Of a stretch of 5,386 bases of DNA, positions 129-5,386 are shown piece by piece. The notes beneath the pieces were generated by a model. It made no database searches. It was not told where the DNA came from and saw only the letters and a program-made list of their open reading frames with translations. This DNA comes from an uncultured Gammaproteobacteria bacterium (GTDB lineage: Bacteria > Patescibacteriota > Microgenomatia > Daviesbacterales > UBA10151). The DNA lies in assembly GCA_964522265.1 (NCBI GenBank), contig CAZFVS010000075.1, forward strand, positions 1 to 5,386, written 5' to 3'. How positions within the stretch are numbered: the first letter of the stretch is position 1; each line of letters starts with the position of its first letter. Made by a program: the position numbers and the translations under genes.

Positions 129-1382
129 GTGGGCTTGCCCCACCTTTTTGTTTATATGCCGATACAAGCTAGAACAGAATTTGCAGCTGCTTTAAACCAA
201 ATCGCTTCTGAAAAAGGGATTGATACAGCAGTGGTAATAGATGCTATCGAACAGGCAGCTTTGGCTGCATACCGCAAAGACCTCTCTTATAGAAATGAAC
301 CAATCCCGGATGATTTTGATACTCTTTCAGCCAAAATCAACCCTTCTTCAGGTGAGATAGGGATTTATAGAGGTGAAGTTAACATCACCCCTCCGGGGTT
401 TGCCAGGATAGCGGCTCAAACAGCCAAGCAGGTGATTGCCCAAAAACTGCATGAAGCTGAAAAAGGGGCGATCATAGATGAATACGCCCAGAAGGTTAAT
501 ACGGTTATTTCAGGCGCCATACAAAGGCAGGAAGGCAACACTTATTTCGTAGATTTAGGCAGGGCAGAAGGGATTATGCCGCCATCCGAGCAGACCAGGA
601 ATGAATTTTACTCTCCAAACCAGCGCATGAAATTTTTCATTAAAGAGATTAGGGAGGATGGCAAGGGGTCTGAAGTGGTGGTGTCCCGCTCTGATCCGGC
701 ATTAGTCAAAGGGCTATTCGCCCTGGAGGTACCGGAAATCCAATCAGGTGCAGTGGAGATTAAAGATGTTGCCCGTGAAGCCGGGGGAAGAAGTAAGGTT
801 GCTGTTTTATCTCACCAGGATGGGGTTGATCCGGTGGGCAGTTTAGTCGGCCAGAAAGGGGTGAGGGTTCAAGCAGTCATAAATGAGCTCGGAGAGGAAA
901 AGATAGACATTATCGCCTATTCGGAAGATCCGGCCCATTTTATTGCCGCCGCGTTGTCTCCGGCTAAAGATATGCAGGTTATTTTAAATGAAGAGATAAA
1001 GGAGGCGAAGGTAAAACTGCCTGAGAACCAATTATCGCTTGCTATAGGTAAAGGCGGGCAAAACGTGAGATTGGCCGCCAAACTGACGGGTTGGAAAATT
1101 GATATTGAAGGTAATAGTGAAAGCAGTGACAAGTTGTCCGCCTCCGCCGAAGCTTCAGCGGGCAAGCAAGAGTCTAGTCGCCAAAGACCCGTTGCTTCGC
1201 CGCGAGGCGAGCGAACCTCGCCAATGGCGGGAGTCCAGGAAGAAAATGAAAAAAAAGAAGAAGTAGAAAAGGAGCCAAAGGATGAAGACATCAAAAGAGA
1301 GAAGAAAGAGAAAGCTAAAAAAGAGAAAAAACTGAAAAAAACACTTGAGGCTGATAAAGTAAGTGAAAAGAAAAAAGAATGA
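129..1382 (+). CDS. nusA: Transcription termination/antitermination factor NusA
   Basis: Long ORF with recognisable NusA architecture. N-terminal helix region: EFAAALNQIASEKGID...AAYRK. S1-like region: GAIQRQEGNTYFVDLGRAEGIMPPSEQ. KH1 with a GxxG motif: VGQKGVRVQAVINELGEEKIDII. KH2: LAIGKGGQNVRLAAKLTGWKIDI. It sits directly upstream of infB, as in most bacteria. The start is ambiguous: GTG 129 has the SD-like GGGTGA, while ATG 156 (MPIQARTEF...) has no SD but a more typical N-terminal length. Confidence 0.93.
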   Translation: MGLPHLFVYMPIQARTEFAAALNQIASEKGIDTAVVIDAIEQAALAAYRKDLSYRNEPIPDDFDTLSAKINPSSGEIGIYRGEVNITPPGFARIAAQTAKQVIAQKLHEAEKGAIIDEYAQKVNTVISGAIQRQEGNTYFVDLGRAEGIMPPSEQTRNEFYSPNQRMKFFIKEIREDGKGSEVVVSRSDPALVKGLFALEVPEIQSGAVEIKDVAREAGGRSKVAVLSHQDGVDPVGSLVGQKGVRVQAVINELGEEKIDIIAYSEDPAHFIAAALSPAKDMQVILNEEIKEAKVKLPENQLSLAIGKGGQNVRLAAKLTGWKIDIEGNSESSDKLSASAEASAGKQESSRQRPVASPRGERTSPMAGVQEENEKKEEVEKEPKDEDIKREKKEKAKKEKKLKKTLEADKVSEKKKE

Positions 1383-1465: not shown

Positions 1466-2968
1466 ATGGCAGAACAGACCAGACCGCCTATCGTAACAAT
1501 ATTAGGCCATGTTGATCATGGGAAGACCAGCCTGCTCGATTTTATCCGCAAATCAAGCGTGGCAGCGCGTGAACATGGAGGGATTACTCAACATATTGGT
1601 GCATATCAGGTTCGGATGTTAGAGGTCGGAAGTCAGAAATCAGAAAAAGAAACTGCAAACAACACTCCAGATACCAATCAGCTAATAACTTTTATAGACA
1701 CTCCGGGTCATGCTGCTTTTGAAAAGATGCGCTCAAGAGGGGCTAAAGTTGCTGACATCGCTGTACTGGTTGTGGCAGTAGATGATGGAGTGATGCCTCA
1801 AACAGTTGAAGCTATAAAACATATTTTGGAAGCCAAAATACCGATGATTGTAGCTTTAAACAAAATTGATCTGACAAGCATCGATATTAAGATCCAGACT
1901 GAAAAAATCAAAAAACAGCTGTCTGACCAGCAGGTTTTAGTTGAGCAGTATGGAGGCGATGTTCCGATCGTACCTGTTTCGGCAAAAACAGGGGTGGGGG
2001 TAGACAAGCTTTTGGAGATGATACTGCTGGTAGCAGAGCTGGGTGAGCTTAAAGGGGATCCTGATGCGCCGGTAACAGGAGTGGTGATTGAAGCCAGTAT
2101 TGACAAATTTAAAGGGCCAATTGCGACCCTGCTGATACGTAACGGTACTTTAAGGAAGGGGGGCCAAATAATGCTTGGCGGGGTTAAGAGTAAGATCAGA
2201 GGAATGTTTGATTTTGCGGGAAAACCTATTGACAGTGCAGGCCCCTCAGCGCCTGTTGAGGTATTGGGTTTGGAAAAAGTGCCTGAGGTTGGGGCGGTGT
2301 TAGGGGAAGAGTCAAGAGTTCAAGAGTCAAGTGAAACCAGATCTTTGATCGATAAACTGAGACAGGCTGATACAACAACTTTGAATGTGGTGATAAAAGC
2401 TGATAAACAGGGGTCACTGGAGGCAATTGAGGAAGCATTAAGCGGGTTTAATACCGAAGGTGAGCATGTAAAGGTTGTATCTACCGGGACAGGAGGCATT
2501 ATGGAATCAGATATAAAACTTGCTGCTTCAACAAGATCAATAGTAATAGGTTTTAACAGTCCTGTTGCGCCGACAGCTCAAAAAATTGCAGAGAATGAAC
2601 ATGTTTTAGTCAGGACTTATACCATAATTTATGAACTGATTGATGAAATAAAACAGGTGGTGGAGGAGATGTTAAAGGTAGGGGCGATTGAAGAGATTTT
2701 TGGGACCGCTCAGGTTATCGCTGAGTTTCCGTATGGTAAAAATGAGCGGATTGCAGGATGCAGAGTGTTGGATGGTCAGATTTCAAAAGGGCCAAAGGCA
2801 AGGGTTGTTAGGGGTGCGGCAGTTATCAGTGAAATGAAGATAAAGTCAATTAAAAAAGTCAAGGAAGAAGTAGTAAAGGTAGAAAAAGGGGATGAATGCG
2901 GGATGATGTTCGAGCCGCAGGTTGATTTCCAGATTGGGGATTTAGTGCAGAGTTTTAGAATATTATAG
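1466..2968 (+). CDS. infB: Translation initiation factor IF-2, short form beginning at the G domain
   Basis: RPPIVTILGHVDHGKTSLLD (P-loop), DTPGHAAF, NKID and SAK motifs in canonical order. These are followed by domain II, C1 (NVVIKADKQGSLEAI) and C2 (IAGCRVLDGQI...GDECGMMF...GDLV), collinear with bacterial IF-2. The ORF track opens at TTG 1430, but ATG 1466 (MAEQTRPP...) is 5 residues before the conserved RPP motif, so I prefer it. No SD precedes either start. Confidence 0.93.
   Translation: MAEQTRPPIVTILGHVDHGKTSLLDFIRKSSVAAREHGGITQHIGAYQVRMLEVGSQKSEKETANNTPDTNQLITFIDTPGHAAFEKMRSRGAKVADIAVLVVAVDDGVMPQTVEAIKHILEAKIPMIVALNKIDLTSIDIKIQTEKIKKQLSDQQVLVEQYGGDVPIVPVSAKTGVGVDKLLEMILLVAELGELKGDPDAPVTGVVIEASIDKFKGPIATLLIRNGTLRKGGQIMLGGVKSKIRGMFDFAGKPIDSAGPSAPVEVLGLEKVPEVGAVLGEESRVQESSETRSLIDKLRQADTTTLNVVIKADKQGSLEAIEEALSGFNTEGEHVKVVSTGTGGIMESDIKLAASTRSIVIGFNSPVAPTAQKIAENEHVLVRTYTIIYELIDEIKQVVEEMLKVGAIEEIFGTAQVIAEFPYGKNERIAGCRVLDGQISKGPKARVVRGAAVISEMKIKSIKKVKEEVVKVEKGDECGMMFEPQVDFQIGDLVQSFRIL
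2920..2956 (+). repeat. Left copy of a perfect 37-bp direct repeat (putative attL core), inside the infB 3' coding end
   Basis: GGTTGATTTCCAGATTGGGGATTTAGTGCAGAGTTTT at 2920..2956 is identical to 3839..3875, verified base by base at offset 919. Confidence 0.9.
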
Positions 2969-2974
2969 TATAAT
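2969..2974 (+). promoter_or_regulatory. Candidate -10 box (TATAAT) placed for a leaderless transcript of the 66-aa ORF
   Basis: Perfect TATAAT at 2969..2974, then 6 nt (AAAAAT), then ATG 2981. No SD is present. No convincing -35 element at 17 +/- 1 nt. Confidence 0.3.
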
Positions 2975-2980
2975 AAAAAT

Positions 2981-3181
2981 ATGGCTCTAGTTTGGGATTA
3001 TGACCAAAAAAAACTCCATAAAACCGAATCAGGCAAAATCTTACTGCTTGAAAGATTGATTAACTATGGCAGAGAGGGGAATAAGAGGATAAAACTGGAA
3101 GAAGTTAAAAAGCACTGGAGTAAATTACACCTCTTACCCCTCAGAAAGAAATTATTTCAGCTTCTAATATGGGGAAAATAA
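2981..3181 (+). CDS. Small basic protein (66 aa), putative partner/antitoxin of the downstream AbiEii-like nucleotidyltransferase
   Basis: The ORF overlaps the downstream gene by 13 nt (ATG 3169, TAA 3179..3181), which suggests translational coupling. By my count it has 16 K/R versus 7 D/E. The pattern WDYD..KL......LLERLINYG...W..L.L resembles, from memory only, small proteins found upstream of DUF1814 nucleotidyltransferases. It is far too short to be a canonical AbiEi. Confidence 0.6.
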   Translation: MALVWDYDQKKLHKTESGKILLLERLINYGREGNKRIKLEEVKKHWSKLHLLPLRKKLFQLLIWGK

Positions 3182-3825
3182 CTATTATTTCTTCTGAGCA
3201 AAAGCTATTACTTTCTGAATTTGCAGCAGACACATTTTTTAGTGCTAATTTTTATTTTTCCGGAGGGACTGCCCTATCTTTATATTATCTTAACCACCGT
3301 ATTTCAGTTGACCTGGATTTTTTTTCAGAACAAGAATTCAACTCTCAAACTATATTAACAAAATTAAATCTTTTAAAAAATAAATACCACTTTAAAATTG
3401 AGTATGTCCCGGCTGAAGAAACTCAAGTTTATATTTTAACTTTCCCTAAACAAAATGCAGTCAAGATAGATTTTGCATTTTATCCTTATAAAAGACTTAA
3501 ACCTTCAATTGTAAAAGATGGGGTTAAAGTTGACAGTTTATTTGATATTGCTGCCAATAAGTTATTGATGACAGAACAGAGAGCAGAAGTGAAAGATTTT
3601 GTTGACCTTTATTTTCTTTTAAAAAGATTTACAATTTGGGATTTAATAGGAGGAGTACATAAAAAGTTTGGATTAAAAACTGATCCGCTACTCATAGCTT
3701 CAAATTTTTTAAAGGTAGAGTCTTTTGAATATCTTCCTAAGATGATTTTGCCGTTAACTTTAGATGAGCTAAAAGATTATTTTAGAGATTTGGCAAAAAA
3801 AATTGGGGGTAAATTAGTTGAATGA
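3169..3825 (+). CDS. Nucleotidyltransferase, AbiEii/AbiGii (DUF1814) toxin family
   Basis: The N-terminal motif FSGGTALSLYYLNHRISVDLDFF matches the family signature GGTAL...R.S.DhDF. The C-terminal motif IAANKLLMTEQRAEVKDFVDLYFLL matches the K....R....D..DL signature. At 218 aa it is at the short end of the family. Confidence 0.85.
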   Translation: MGKITIISSEQKLLLSEFAADTFFSANFYFSGGTALSLYYLNHRISVDLDFFSEQEFNSQTILTKLNLLKNKYHFKIEYVPAEETQVYILTFPKQNAVKIDFAFYPYKRLKPSIVKDGVKVDSLFDIAANKLLMTEQRAEVKDFVDLYFLLKRFTIWDLIGGVHKKFGLKTDPLLIASNFLKVESFEYLPKMILPLTLDELKDYFRDLAKKIGGKLVE

Positions 3826-3887
3826 ATTTAGAATGTCTGGTTGATTTCCAGATTGGGGATTTAGTGCAGAGTTTTCGGACTCTTTGA
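3822..3887 (+). pseudogene. infB: Displaced 3' fragment of infB (probable original gene end); reads MNLECLVDFQIGDLVQSFRTL*
   Basis: In the frame of the repeat, 3840..3887 encodes VDFQIGDLVQSFRTL*, against VDFQIGDLVQSFRIL* at 2921..2968. Weaker similarity extends 18 nt upstream: ATG AAT TTA GAA TGT CTG versus ATG ATG TTC GAG CCG CAG, 10/18 identical, M-x-[L/F]-E retained. There is no upstream IF-2 coding sequence, so it is not a functional gene. Confidence 0.8.
3839..3875 (+). repeat. Right copy of the perfect 37-bp direct repeat (putative attR core)
   Basis: Identical to 2920..2956. It begins 13 nt after the stop codon of the nucleotidyltransferase gene. Confidence 0.9.
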
Positions 3888-3952
3888 GGAGTTTTGACAG
3901 TTACAAGAAAAGTTGATTAAAGTCAGAATCTCGTCAGAAAAAAGTGCCAATT

Positions 3953-4010: not shown

Positions 4011-4505
4011 ATGTATCATGAAAAAGAAAGTGCTATATCAGCAGTACTAGCTGCCAATGCTCTAGTTCCTCCCGAACAATTTCAAATCTTGCAAGGTGCT
4101 ATTGGCCAGGAAGTCGCAATGGAATACCATTTTCGTAGAGATTATTCAGATGAAGCTGACGGAAATACACCGGATGATTTTGAAACAATAGAAAGGTTTA
4201 TTTTAAAAGACGTTAGTTTTGTTAGGCATCCGAGGACTAATCTCAAATATTTGGCTTTTTTTAGAAATGTTAAAGATGATGCAGTATATTTCCCTTATTG
4301 GAGTTCAGAGAATGTGTTTGGAGATTATACAAATGTGCAAATTTATAATCTACAGAATTCTTCCGGAGAAGTGCTATGGAGTTTTAATTCTCCCGGGGCG
4401 AGGATAACCACCAGGGGGAACCCGGCAACTAATGATGAAATTGGGCAGGCGATCATAGATTGTTCCGAAAGCATGTTAGCTTTAAAAGTAAAACAGGGAA
4501 AATAA
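4011..4505 (+). CDS. Hypothetical protein, 164 aa, no family recognised
   Basis: Uninterrupted 495-nt ORF with an AGGAG SD upstream. The residue mix is ordinary and not low-complexity. I see no signal peptide or TM segment and recognise no conserved motif. Confidence 0.65.
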   Translation: MYHEKESAISAVLAANALVPPEQFQILQGAIGQEVAMEYHFRRDYSDEADGNTPDDFETIERFILKDVSFVRHPRTNLKYLAFFRNVKDDAVYFPYWSSENVFGDYTNVQIYNLQNSSGEVLWSFNSPGARITTRGNPATNDEIGQAIIDCSESMLALKVKQGK

Positions 4506-4511
4506 TCTATG

Positions 4512-5294
4512 CTACGGTACAAATTCCAAAATCATTGGCAGATGGTCTGAAACTGTAACTTGCGGAACCTGAAATGTTATTACCTCAACATCTTTTGACA
4601 CAAAAGTGTAGTCCGCAAATTTTTGCTCATCAGGTTGGTTATAAAAAGGGCTTAACTTGCTTCTGGTCCTTTTTATATTAAACTCCTTGATTAAATCCCT
4701 AAGTTTATTTTCCAAAATAGCCATGCTTTTGGTTTGCGGCATTAAGTTAAAATCCCCGCAGATAATTTTTGCCCCTGTATGATTATCTGAAAATTTCAGG
4801 ATTCTTTCTAATTGTTTGATCCTGTCTTTGGTATCTAACTTATCTCCCGGGTACCAGATTCCATGACAATTGCAGATTAAAATTTTTTTACCGTTTACCC
4901 GGAAATTGACAAACTGTAAGTTAACCGGTGCGCCTTTGGTGTCATTTTCCAGATGGGCAAACCTTCTCCTGTACACAAAATAATCACCTTCATTGTCAAT
5001 TTTAATGCTTCTTTTAACAAACATGCCTAAACCTGAGGTTAAATTATATTTAGCCCTGCCCTTGTCATCTATCCCCTCAAAAGCAGGGTAATAAAATTTA
5101 TGGAAATCCAAAAAAAGATTTGAGAGATCCTGCCAAAGGTCAGCACGGATATCGTGGCTTAAATTTAGATGGTCTTTAGTATCAAATACTTCTTGGAAGC
5201 AGAAGATATCTATAGTTGAAATCTGTTGTGTCAGATACTCCATCAAAGGCCCAAAATCTTTACCTCCCCAAAGGTTCAATGATAAAAGTTTCAT
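4512..5294 (-). CDS. Endonuclease/exonuclease/phosphatase (EEP, DNase I-like fold) family protein
   Basis: The ordered EEP signature set is present: MKLLSLNLWGG (N), FCFQEV (catalytic E), CNCHG, ICGDFN (D, N) and VSDHLPMILEF (D-H). The ORF track opens at TTG 5309, but ATG 5294 (MKLLSLN...) gives the typical family N-terminus. No signal peptide. Confidence 0.85.
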   Translation of the reverse strand: MKLLSLNLWGGKDFGPLMEYLTQQISTIDIFCFQEVFDTKDHLNLSHDIRADLWQDLSNLFLDFHKFYYPAFEGIDDKGRAKYNLTSGLGMFVKRSIKIDNEGDYFVYRRRFAHLENDTKGAPVNLQFVNFRVNGKKILICNCHGIWYPGDKLDTKDRIKQLERILKFSDNHTGAKIICGDFNLMPQTKSMAILENKLRDLIKEFNIKRTRSKLSPFYNQPDEQKFADYTFVSKDVEVITFQVPQVTVSDHLPMILEFVP

Positions 5295-5300
5295 AGTCTG

Positions 5301-5306
5301 ATTATA
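5301..5306 (-). promoter_or_regulatory. Candidate -10 box (TATAAT on the minus strand) placed for a leaderless EEP transcript
   Basis: The minus strand reads GTTGTATAATCAGACTATGAAA: a perfect TATAAT, 6 nt, then ATG 5294. No SD. The nearest -35-like TTGGAA is 20 nt away, which is too far. Confidence 0.3.
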
Positions 5307-5386
5307 CAACTGTTTGCTTGTGGCATTTCCAATTCAGAGTTTGGTGCAAAACCACAATTAGATCACCCCAGCAATCCATAACTTTC

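Follow-up and report, generated by a model that had tools for sequence, protein, structure and literature searches.

The 3' end of infB in the window, by which we mean the whole 5,386-nt stretch of DNA that was analyzed, carries what we read, at a probability of roughly 0.6, as a minimal selfish module of two genes without a recombinase that moved horizontally into the last ~50 nt of the gene in a Candidatus Daviesbacteria genome and is bracketed there by repeats. [quoted passage not shown]

The repeat pair at the end of infB

The target gene infB (1466..2968, on the + strand as are all features described here) encodes a short 500-aa IF-2 with Pfam domains GTP_EFTU, IF-2, and EF-G_D2, and it is preceded by nusA (129..1382; Pfam NusA_N, KH_5, and KH_NusA_C), which gives the context by opening the conserved nusA-infB pair. 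The infB product and database protein P0121 (500 aa) are 100% identical, the nearest relatives being the IF-2 of Candidatus Daviesbacteria, and the gene is intact, with its last ~16 codons in the left repeat copy and the tail behind it. The repeats are as the preliminary description gave them, perfect over 37 bp, direct, and 919 bp apart: positions 2920-2956 and 3839-3875 both read GGTTGATTTCCAGATTGGGGATTTAGTGCAGAGTTTT, with a start-to-start distance of 919 nt, and an exact repeat of that length has a chance expectation of ~10−15 in 5.4 kb by an arithmetic estimate. A repeat finder extends the pair to 54 nt at 85% identity (2903-2956 / 3822-3875). Because only 9 of the 17 bases added beyond the 37-nt core match, and because the extension is missing from the second genome discussed below, L001, the left edge of the repeat is set at ~2917-2920.

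The left copy (2920..2956) is coding, corresponds to VDFQIGDLVQSF of IF-2, and continues in frame with AGA ATA TTA TAG, which is the functional infB tail AGAATATTATAG (RIL*, 2957..2968), which is AT-rich and may have arrived with the cassette. The right copy (3839..3875) is a non-coding relic of the infB end that continues with CGG ACT CTT TGA, the displaced tail CGGACTCTTTGA (RTL*, 3876..3887), which may be the infB end that was resident before insertion and which runs into DNA unique to the window's host. It had been proposed that the right copy still reads in frame as the IF-2 C-terminus down to its own stop, and it does, as ...VDFQIGDLVQSFRTL*; with RIL* and RTL* both in-frame continuations, both copies read as an IF-2 C-terminus. 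The inserted unit is 919 nt long and is given by one convention as 2957..3875, equivalently 2920-3838, so delimited that it comprises the tail, the promoter, the two genes, and one repeat copy. Identity to L001 changes abruptly at the repeats.

The two genes of the module

A TATAAT -10 box (2969..2974) directly follows the infB stop codon, lies 6 nt ahead of the ATG that opens the first cassette gene, and is predicted to be a cassette promoter of the leaderless type. A generic sigma-70 scan makes no call at this box because there is no -35 match; among family members, a -10-like hexamer starting at -18 to -9 (mode -12) is found in 73/78, versus 6/78 in a control window. The gene behind it (2981..3181) encodes a 66-aa protein, overlaps the toxin gene by 13 nt, and lies directly upstream of it in 80/80 related loci. 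Pfam, NCBIfam, and PADLOC searches with the 66-aa protein gave no match. Its AlphaFold2 model has four helices at a pLDDT of 88, for which comparison with the PDB gave no fold match. We presume that the 66-aa gene encodes the antitoxin, a role suggested by its strict co-occurrence and overlap with the toxin gene in all 80 loci.

The second gene (3169..3825) encodes a 218-aa protein, predicted to be a nucleotidyltransferase toxin of the AbiEii/DUF1814 type by a match to Pfam PF08843 at E = 4.6 × 10−18, scoring 66.5 bits against a cut-off of 22.5, and by matches to the PADLOC AbiEii models. It has 765 homologues. In the toxin family alignment, the GG...DxD and K/R-D motifs, which we take to be those of DUF1814 nucleotidyltransferases, are invariant in 32 homologues, and the invariant residues are G32 G33 ... 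D48 x D50, K99 x D101, D126, N130 K131, R138, K142 D143, and D146. A 13-nt spacer (3826..3838) leads from the toxin stop codon to the right repeat; where family members have repeats, 0-27 nt usually separate that stop from the start of the right copy. The preliminary description had put two short overlapping genes alone between the repeats, in DNA more AT-rich than most of the infB sequence sampled, and had called the cargo toxin-like. These points hold up: the 66-aa gene and the AbiEii gene are the only ones present, with no other mobile-element gene, the GC content is 0.29 in the toxin gene (GC3 0.20) and 0.35 in the 66-aa gene versus 0.44-0.46 in infB and nusA, and the cargo is a predicted toxin.

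In type IV toxin-antitoxin systems of the AbiE kind, the AbiEi antitoxin has a winged-helix N-terminal domain and a C-terminal domain. Held against that definition, the cassette has the AbiEii toxin domain and lacks AbiEi, its partner being the 66-aa protein. The AbiE and MenAT systems (PMC7450476, PMC10435456, PMC11375011) share with it the AbiEii/DUF1814 toxin domain and an overlapping upstream partner gene, with MenA1 as a precedent for a short unrelated antitoxin, but they differ in that the partner here is not AbiEi and matched no known family or solved fold, in that the toxin of the infB cassette is a predicted one, and in that those papers do not present their systems as inserted units that duplicate a target. 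The DUF1814 toxins characterized so far modify the tRNA acceptor stem and so block translation.

Occupied and empty infB ends

The same cassette is found at the same infB site and with the same layout in L001 (GCA_016186955.1), an independent Daviesbacteria assembly in which the repeat is imperfect (50 nt, 88% identity). Between the window and L001, nucleotide identity is 95% for the partner gene, 92.5% for the toxin gene, and 93% for the cassette overall, against 79% for nusA and 81% for infB in the flank; at four-fold sites it is 0.89 for each of the two cassette genes against 0.50 for nusA and 0.54 for infB, and the DNA 3' of the right repeat is not homologous at all. By these identities, the cassette is much younger than its surroundings. 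On the right-hand side the core matches L001 at 35/37 positions and the tail at 6/12, a fall that places a breakpoint at the core/tail boundary, while the left tail and spacer are 21/24 identical. The earlier proposal that the insertion rebuilt the gene end is compatible with that breakpoint and with the AT-rich tail AGAATATTATAG, which is near those of L001 and L084, but the identification of donor and host copies that it implies is ambiguous, and in L001 either assignment of the host and element copies fits about equally well.

Four lineages have an occupied infB end (the window, L001, L084, and L002). The left junction, a stop codon followed by the -10 box, is the same in 4/4 of them, and the window and L001 agree in the base at which the repeat begins, as expected if a copy of the gene end moves with the cassette. 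Uninterrupted infB ends, for which the preliminary description had suggested a search of related genomes, were found, nine distinct Daviesbacteria-like ones in all (L085, L086, L087/L113, L094, L095, L110, L123, and L125), where infB finishes ...SF(Y)R(I/T)L* with unrelated genes directly after. They are not from the species of the window, since identity in the IF-2 C-terminus is 60-84%. The RIL* ending occurs both in L084, which is occupied, and in L085, which is empty, and the empty L085 is closer to the window by its IF-2 C-terminus (84%) than the occupied L002 (74%). An exact search for the window's right junction had no match, and neither a circular form nor an excision product came to light, nor did an empty site from the same species.

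Horizontal movement follows from the contrast at four-fold sites (89% vs 50-54%), the patchy occupancy, and the second genome with the same insertion. The presence of the cassette at infB in four related lineages would also suit an old, vertically inherited local rearrangement that duplicated the tail around resident genes with no mobility, but that account is highly improbable, being contradicted by the synonymous contrast, by the interleaving of empty and occupied lineages, and by the occurrence of the same module family at unrelated loci with unrelated repeats.

Related modules at other gene ends

The preliminary description, which would have failed had neither an empty site nor a second-locus copy come to light, is borne out here too: 80 related loci are spread across Microgenomates, mostly away from infB, with only the closest relatives at infB itself. 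The two-gene unit is kept in all of them, making the module a conserved unit of ~0.85 kb throughout Microgenomates. Locus-specific flanking repeats scoring at least 15 were found at 18/73 loci versus 6/459 shifted controls (Fisher p = 3 × 10−12), and 0/600 mismatched locus pairs reached a score of 15. Roughly one-quarter to one-third of cases are bracketed by repeats, with duplications of 20-150 nt, and the lack of a repeat in the remaining ~70% of family members may be due to decay or to another mode of insertion. What has been duplicated is usually a conserved gene's 3' end, the genes including dnaN, rpsG, guaA, rnc, a radA-like gene, zwf, and others, and targeting of the 3' end means that an intact copy of the gene is retained. 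As judged from sequence comparison, the module moves both between genomes and between loci.

These loci also bear on the reality of the structure. A perfect repeat in a short metagenome contig of 5.4 kb could have come about if assembly had fused an empty infB site, by way of the 37-nt repeat, to a strain variant or some other separate molecule. Such an artefact is exceedingly improbable, as L001 has the same architecture with a repeat that, at 50 nt and 88% identity, cannot collapse in an assembly graph, the dnaN insertion is reproduced in three independent assemblies (ENA, JGI, and Logan), and a chimera would still need real DNA in which the cassette abuts the repeat on both sides.

How the two copies of a repeat differ is of interest for their origin. 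In L001, 6/6 differences between the copies are synonymous, and in the dnaN case 4 of the 5 differences are conservative amino-acid changes. Over all repeat copies, 81 synonymous and 72 non-synonymous differences at 223 and 791 sites, respectively, give pN/pS = 0.25, a value that pools short segments of which a few have uncertain reading frames. The copies thereby seem to differ as two alleles would, mostly at synonymous sites. Arrays of gene-end relics are found at L082, L019, L064, and L074, and at several targets successive cassettes have relics of one and the same gene end between them; in L082, the relic copies are 86% and 77% identical to each other and 70% identical to the functional end. 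A motif shared among the repeats of different loci was sought in 20 repeats and none was found, k-mers being shared no more than at control level. Within the infB lineage the repeat is conserved, yet it is also coding sequence.

Routes of insertion

The preliminary description had recognized in the repeats the signature of attL and attR. The layout fits, with the 3' end of the gene duplicated; the implied site-specific recombination does not fare as well, because neither in the window nor in the repeat-bounded family members is there an integrase or recombinase gene between the repeats, and the 20 repeats share no att core or recombinase-binding motif. It had also regarded a protein-coding target as out of the ordinary. 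The target is essential infB, but the choice is less exotic than it seemed, with precedents from ICEs and from restriction-modification genes. ICEs such as ICESt1/ICESt3 integrate into the 3' end of fda. [quoted passage not shown]

A version of site-specific recombination that allows for the missing integrase is a CIME-like remnant or satellite on which an integrase encoded elsewhere, by an ICE, IME, or prophage targeting the infB 3' end, acts in trans, so that the repeats are true attL and attR. Integrase-driven elements show exactly such a layout; site-specific elements and CIMEs (PMC5704250) occupy the 3' end of a conserved housekeeping gene, duplicate it as attL and attR, supply a replacement gene end, and accrete in tandem at one gene end, CIMEs doing so without an integrase of their own, as cis-mobilizable elements that keep attL and attR when the genes for integration and transfer of a parent ICE or IME at that target have been lost. 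The relic arrays in L082 and L019 resemble the accretion of CIMEs and IMEs (PMC5704250), and junction positions recur across hosts. We nevertheless consider this unlikely. Neither an integrase nor a relaxase or parent element was found for the infB cassette; no integrase is recorded in the 13.5 kb surrounding L001, and no parent ICE or IME was seen at infB in the loci retrieved. The unit measures 0.9 kb and its content is constant, whereas decay products would be expected to vary and not to hold exactly the same two genes at 80 loci. With repeats that vary in length from 20 to 150 nt and have no core in common among targets, many integrase specificities would be required, and searches of viral contigs, phages, and plasmids found no relatives of the cassette.

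A transposon-like insertion, in which a staggered cut 20-150 nt apart is followed by gap repair that duplicates the target, would make both copies host-derived, the enzyme being encoded by the host or being the module's nucleotidyltransferase or partner protein. It accommodates the long, variable repeats, their target-specific sequences, and the compactness of the unit, and for restriction-modification genes, insertion with a long and variable duplication of the target has been put forward (PMC2853133, PMC3874152). It is still improbable here, since insertions that arose independently should differ in position, whereas a single base is hit in infB across several lineages and in dnaN across several samples, a decaying duplicate should by a rough expectation show pN/pS of ~0.5 or more rather than 0.25 with 6/6 synonymous in L001, and the L082 relics are closer to each other than to the functional end. 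Terminal inverted repeats are lacking from the module, as are conserved ends of any other kind, and the characterized DUF1814 proteins are tRNA nucleotidyltransferases, not DNA transposases (PMC7450476, PMC10435456).

For the recombinase-less insertion that we prefer, a route by homologous recombination of the Campbell type is put forward tentatively, at a little under even odds. The module would carry a copy of the previous host's gene end and, after DNA uptake, a single RecA-dependent crossover between the carried and resident gene ends would leave a functional end that is partly donor-derived (...RIL*) and push the resident end downstream (...RTL*). Recombination between the repeats would excise the module precisely as a circle, and the toxin-antitoxin pair would punish cells that lose it. 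Conserved gene ends would make good targets, as they offer the same homology in many hosts. Homologous-recombination and competence genes are reported in Patescibacteria (PMC12455944). The crossover point in the window cannot be mapped because the two cores are identical. Repeats of 37-50 nt are short for efficient RecA-dependent recombination, no entry route for a double-stranded circle into these bacteria is established, and the homology model leaves unexplained how a cassette first acquires a new target.

A bolder proposition, which we think doubtful, is that these are a previously undescribed class of minimal mobile elements in Microgenomates, single-operon cassettes that, without a dedicated recombinase, home to the 3' termini of essential conserved genes and form integron-like arrays. 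Such cassettes may home by carrying a copy of the target gene end, with the window cassette as the type example, and in a radical version the DUF1814 nucleotidyltransferase or the 66-aa partner may take part in the insertion chemistry.

Relation to known elements

The closest likeness is to restriction-modification complexes, whose insertion with long target duplication is attributed to Nobusato et al. 2000, as cited in PMC2853133, and treated by Furuta, Abe, and Kobayashi 2010 (PMC2853133) and in a review (PMC3874152). By the measures of Furuta et al., the infB insert is a complete module under 20 kb (919 nt, both genes) with no other mobile-element gene, the repeat exceeds 30 bp (37 nt exact in the window; 50 nt at 88% in L001; 20-150 nt in family members), and related genomes have an uninterrupted single target (nine infB ends at 60-84% identity, from different species). 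Both are small modules of known or predicted post-segregational killing without a mobility gene of their own, flanked by direct repeats of more than 30 bp that are local target duplications, variable in length, unique to the locus, and sometimes over a gene 3' end, as in the 46-bp cases of H. influenzae. In both, the GC content of the module differs from that of the host. The restriction-modification cases are mostly in naturally competent bacteria. The differences are that the cargo here is a DUF1814 toxin pair while the reviews describe the mode for restriction-modification genes only, that the hosts are CPR/Microgenomates with one module family accounting for dozens of cases, that lineages keep to a single conserved gene end in hosts that have diverged and leave relic arrays, and that the allele-like differences between copies point to homology-guided integration and not to a staggered cut.

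As a proposal, this mode of insertion dates from 2000, when it rested on a few restriction-modification cases. Dozens of natural replicates are now available in one compact module family at identifiable targets (infB, dnaN, rpsG, guaA, rnc, radA, and zwf), ranging from young insertions to old ones and taking in arrays as well as alleles with and without the cassette, so that the competing mechanisms, Campbell-type circle, long staggered cut, and trans recombinase, become directly testable. The family indicates that in CPR bacteria, which have tiny genomes and few recognizable mobile elements, a toxin-antitoxin pair can constitute a mobile unit by itself. Essential gene ends act as landing pads there, which matters for annotating duplicated gene-end fragments and for reading contig breaks in such metagenomes.

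Small units without a recombinase are also found as the pdif (XerC/XerD) modules of Acinetobacter plasmids and as integron cassettes, which often carry toxin-antitoxin genes and form arrays. Their boundaries are conserved recombinase targets unrelated to host genes, the pdif sites being 28-bp and in inverted orientation and the attC sites having internal symmetry. The infB cassette is like them in being very small, repeat-bounded, without its own recombinase, and able to form arrays, and differs in that its repeats are in direct orientation and copied from the end of whatever host gene received the insert: its family's boundaries are in-frame copies of the adjacent gene end, different at every locus.

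Layout of the cassette at the end of infB

The window, a complete NCBI contig of 5386 nt, encodes nusA (129-1382), infB (1466-2968), a 66-aa protein (2981-3181), a 218-aa toxin-like protein (3169-3825), a 164-aa protein without a family match (4011-4505) and, on the minus strand, a protein of the endonuclease/exonuclease/phosphatase family (4512-5309). The closest relatives of its IF-2 are all named Candidatus Daviesbacteria (Microgenomates, CPR). An exact look-up of its toxin and IF-2 in the contig index gave no record, and 100% matches from this contig itself are among those of the homology search. The preliminary description had seen the two short genes as a toxin-like cassette set into the 3' end of infB between direct repeats, and all of the elements it described hold. 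An exact 37-nt direct repeat occupies 2920-2956 and 3839-3875, with 919 nt from the start of one copy to the start of the other. The left copy is IF-2 coding sequence, VDFQIGDLVQSF, continuing with AGA ATA TTA TAG (RIL*), and the right copy is still readable as an IF-2 end, continuing with CGG ACT CTT TGA (RTL*). The cassette is AT-rich, as had been noted, and its toxin gene has GC of 0.29 and GC3 of 0.20 versus 0.44 and 0.39 in infB. An Rfam scan of the entire window at E up to 1 returned no match; the repeat thus corresponds to no known RNA element.

Two candidate additions to this layout were rejected on comparison with L001, a Candidatus Daviesbacteria contig (GCA_016186955.1) with the cassette at the same infB site. 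A weak match that would lengthen the repeat by about 40 nt at its upstream edge, reaching the toxin C-terminus, is missing there. The other was translation of the right-hand relic, by way of a 21-codon ORF (3822-3887, MNLECLVDFQIGDLVQSFRTL*) whose ATG shares bases with the toxin stop codon (ATGA) and which runs through the right repeat; in L001 this frame ends at a stop codon three codons before the repeat begins. The ORF is not conserved in L001 and is probably fortuitous.

Age and occupancy of the infB site

The closest IF-2, at 85% identity, is that of L001, which is a contig of 74 kb from a second Daviesbacteria MAG and where the same two genes stand at the same place within a flanking repeat of 50 nt that is 88% identical between its copies. 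A repeat that is imperfect cannot be an assembly collapse. Between the window and L001, nusA and infB have nucleotide identities of 79% and 81% and four-fold-site identities of 0.50 and 0.54, whereas the 66-aa gene and the toxin gene have nucleotide identities of 95% and 92.5%, both with a four-fold-site identity of 0.89. Each repeat core agrees at 35/37 positions and the right tail, the last 12 nt to the stop codon, at 6/12, and the DNA beyond the right repeat is unrelated. Because the cassette is far more alike than nusA and infB, it was shared long after the two hosts diverged, and on these sequence comparisons it is a recent, horizontal insertion.

Two further lineages carry the cassette after infB, L084 (IF-2 78% identical) and L002 (67-74%). 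The site is empty in at least 9 distinct Daviesbacteria-like contigs, in which infB is directly followed by other genes. The predicted empty-site/right junction, CAGAGTTTTCGGACTCTTTGAGGAG, searched for exactly, had 0 matches in metagenome contigs. A degenerate search of metagenome contigs for the infB end gave 62 loci with one match each, mostly from distant phyla; the cassette is in 0 of them, and they serve only as extra empty sites. Occupancy is patchy with respect to relatedness, since in a comparison of the 130 C-terminal IF-2 residues the empty contig L085 is 84% identical to the window and the occupied L002 is 74% identical. Vertical inheritance of the cassette, by which these hosts would all have had it from a common ancestor, is contradicted both by this patchiness and by the synonymous-site contrast. 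The left junction, stop codon and then predicted -10 box, is the same in 4/4 occupied lineages, and the window and L001 also share the base at which the repeat begins.

A family of modules across Microgenomates

The expectation that the cassette would occur at other loci was borne out by a scan of one genome per species, which found 80 related loci in Daviesbacteria, Levybacteria, Roizmanbacteria, Gottesmanbacteria, Shapirobacteria, Blackburnbacteria, Woesebacteria and WWE3. All 80 contain the two-gene unit, at 824-875 nt. Only the closest relatives of the window cassette occupy the infB site, and cassettes that are 72-77% identical in nucleotides have wholly unrelated flanks. Viral contigs, phage records and plasmid records yielded no close relative, only AbiEii proteins at 29-33% identity.

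To score flanking repeats, the 300 nt upstream of each cassette were aligned to the 300 nt downstream, with a threshold of 15. That score was reached at 18/73 loci versus 6/459 position-shifted controls (Fisher p = 3e-12) and by 0/600 mismatched locus pairs; two of the shifted-control matches are explained, L064 by another repeat-bounded cassette and L082 by lying within a cassette array. The repeats are 20-150 nt in length and differ from locus to locus, with no motif common to different loci beyond the control level. From the toxin stop codon to the start of the right copy there are usually 0-27 nt. The duplicated target is usually a gene 3' end, including those of rpsG, guaA (with the cassette between guaA and guaB), rnc, a radA-like gene, zwf and an ABC-2 permease, and in two cases (L008, L045) it is the 5' start of the downstream gene instead. 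At dnaN one and the same 47-nt repeat is found in ENA, JGI and Logan assemblies. Misassembly, in which the repeats would be artefacts of contig construction, is contradicted by this case from three assemblies and by L001.

Many toxin homologues are on Logan contigs of 930-990 nt, and we considered whether these contigs are circles or repeat-bounded unitigs. L152, a 971-nt contig with a dnaN-associated cassette alone, fits, as its positions 1-29 and 943-971 are the same 29 nt; L003, at 941 nt, does not, as it lacks such matching ends. The cause of the identical ends in L152 may also be that of the other contigs in this size range. Such ends fit either a circle or a unitig broken at an exact repeat of about 30 nt and are therefore not evidence of excision, and this line of evidence was dropped.

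As a separate observation, L005, L007, L012, L019, L021, L024 and about 20 more of the compared loci come from TPA MAGs (binchicken, SRP co-assemblies) titled 'uncultured Gammaproteobacteria bacterium'. On contigs with Microgenomates-type cassettes, that label looks doubtful.

Toxin, partner and promoter

The 218-aa protein, flagged earlier as toxin-like, is an AbiEii/DUF1814 nucleotidyltransferase (Pfam E = 4.6e-18; PADLOC AbiEii), with the glycine and aspartate motifs of the family invariant among 32 homologues. A profile search against PDB sequences gave just two entries, both 'Putative'. The characterised relatives MenT1-4 modify tRNA acceptor stems and so block translation (PMC7450476, PMC10435456).

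The 66-aa partner has no match in Pfam, NCBIfam or PADLOC, and its detectable homologues number only 27, all unnamed. It is modeled as four helices at pLDDT 88, and a fold search with this model among solved structures found nothing significant. Having neither a family nor a structure match, it is not an AbiEi antitoxin. Its gene is directly upstream of the toxin gene and overlaps it in 80/80 related loci, and MenA1 provides a precedent for an antitoxin that is short and unrelated (PMC10435456). From position, overlap and precedent, the 66-aa protein is probably the cognate antitoxin.

In the window a TATAAT -10 box (2969-2974) comes straight after the infB stop codon. Across the family, 73/78 loci have a -10-like hexamer whose first base is 18 to 9 nt ahead of the ATG (mode -12), versus 6/78 in a control window, a set position that argues for the module carrying its own promoter of the leaderless type. 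A generic sigma-70 scan did not call the cassette promoter, and the -10 box is predicted from its fixed position across the family.

Arrays and clustered modules

In L082, the last ~69 nt of the glucose-6-phosphate dehydrogenase gene (zwf; 1863-3380) are found in four copies, at 3307-3375, 4263-4331, 5627-5695 and 6680-6748. Set apart from one another by these copies are the toxin cassette, a minus-strand ORF of 370 aa and an ORF of 318 aa, and Pfam matches neither ORF. L082 is an integron-like array without an integrase. Three or four gene-end copies are also found in each of L019 (4728, 5671, 7657, 8907), L074 (3557, 4421, 5664) and L064. Longer repeats enclose more than the cassette: a 139-nt repeat in L037 (4574-4712 and 6091-6230) includes extra DNA, and a 75-nt repeat in L076 (4651-4725 and 6622-6696) includes a second, inverted AbiEii gene. 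In L064 a perfect 24-nt direct repeat (2931-2954, 3890-3913) encloses another AbiEii pair, divergent and encoded on the minus strand, with a 245-aa toxin about 31% identical to that of the window and an 85-aa partner, so flanking repeats are not confined to the close family.

A recombinase acting in trans, as on CIME-like, cis-mobilizable elements (PMC5704250), would account for the arrays and the fixed junctions. It would also require many specificities and an unseen parent element, and it fits poorly with the constant two-gene content.

Such modules also cluster with others. In Logan contig L149 (4334-4863 and 5001-5848), the cassette, around which a flanking repeat was not detected, adjoins another toxin-antitoxin pair, a YafQ-like toxin and an 87-aa partner on the minus strand, and in L032, L034 and L036 another AbiEii gene lies no more than a few kb away.

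Origin of the repeat copies

Three observations argue that one repeat copy comes with the cassette and that the host did not copy both. The same base of the same gene is kept in hosts whose core genes are synonymously saturated. Read in the target-gene frame, the repeat copies differ with a bias to synonymous changes, with 6/6 synonymous in L001 and, over all loci, 81 differences at 223 synonymous sites and 72 at 791 non-synonymous sites (pN/pS = 0.25). A freely decaying duplicate is expected at roughly 0.5 or more. Third, the three relics in L082 are closer to one another (86%, 77%) than to the functional end (70%). The copies thus look like alleles, each once under coding selection. Assigning the L001 copies to element and host was uninformative, since both assignments fit (element ~88-90%, host 84%).

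Duplication by a staggered cut, the reading proposed for restriction-modification genes (PMC2853133), would have the host sequence copied at insertion and accounts for the variable repeat lengths, but leaves the site fidelity and the allele-like differences unexplained. The simplest model that would fit is a single crossover of the Campbell type, in which a gene-end copy linked to the cassette would recombine once with the resident gene end, and the reverse reaction would release a circle with one repeat. For this model we infer the circle, the transfer route, a dependence on RecA and the first acquisition of new targets. In the window, the functional RIL* tail would be donor-derived and the RTL* relic would be the former resident end. 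That assignment agrees with the abrupt drop of the right copy against L001 at the boundary of core and tail, and the AT-rich, cassette-like composition of the functional tail agrees with a donor origin. Precise excision would join infB ...AGTTTT straight to CGGACTCTTTGAGGAG. The toxin-antitoxin pair may counter-select the deletions that direct repeats of 37-50 nt invite. Recombination and competence genes are reported in Patescibacteria (PMC12455944).

Relation to restriction-modification insertions

Among described phenomena, the nearest is 'insertion with long target duplication', reported for restriction-modification complexes (PMC2853133, PMC3874152). Those insertions have locus-specific repeats of >30 bp that sometimes overlap a gene 3' end, contain no mobility genes, occur mostly in competent species and have an unexplained mechanism (PMC2853133, PMC3874152). 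All 4 operational criteria of PMC2853133 apply to the window cassette, with the empty sites coming from related species and not from the same species. In the literature searched, insertion of this kind is described for restriction-modification only, and not for classical toxin-antitoxin pairs or CPR bacteria. The phenomenon is hence not categorically new; what is new is the cargo, the host group and the number of natural replicates in one family, together with the way cassettes stay faithful to the ends of conserved essential genes, the arrays and the evidence for one foreign repeat copy. A question of mechanism that has been open since 2000 becomes testable.

Neighboring genes

The C-terminal part of NusA (1141-1382) has a GC-rich Ser/Ala/Arg-rich stretch and a long Lys/Glu-rich tail, and its alignment with L001 needs large gaps (24, 30 and 189 columns); it is a fast-evolving, low-complexity extension. 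Just 3' of the right repeat, the 164-aa ORF has no Pfam or PADLOC match, and its sole NCBIfam match, BamB, scores a negligible 14 bits (cut-off 423). The ORF is preceded, at 3894-3923, by a promoter-like TTGACA-18-TAAAGT. The endonuclease/exonuclease/phosphatase protein has 265 aa and a second, weaker Pfam match to 'Endonuclease-reverse transcriptase' (E = 1.7e-6). Its gene, outside the repeats, is missing from the L001 locus, and L042 encodes a relative that is 40% identical, some 2.3 kb upstream of its cassette.
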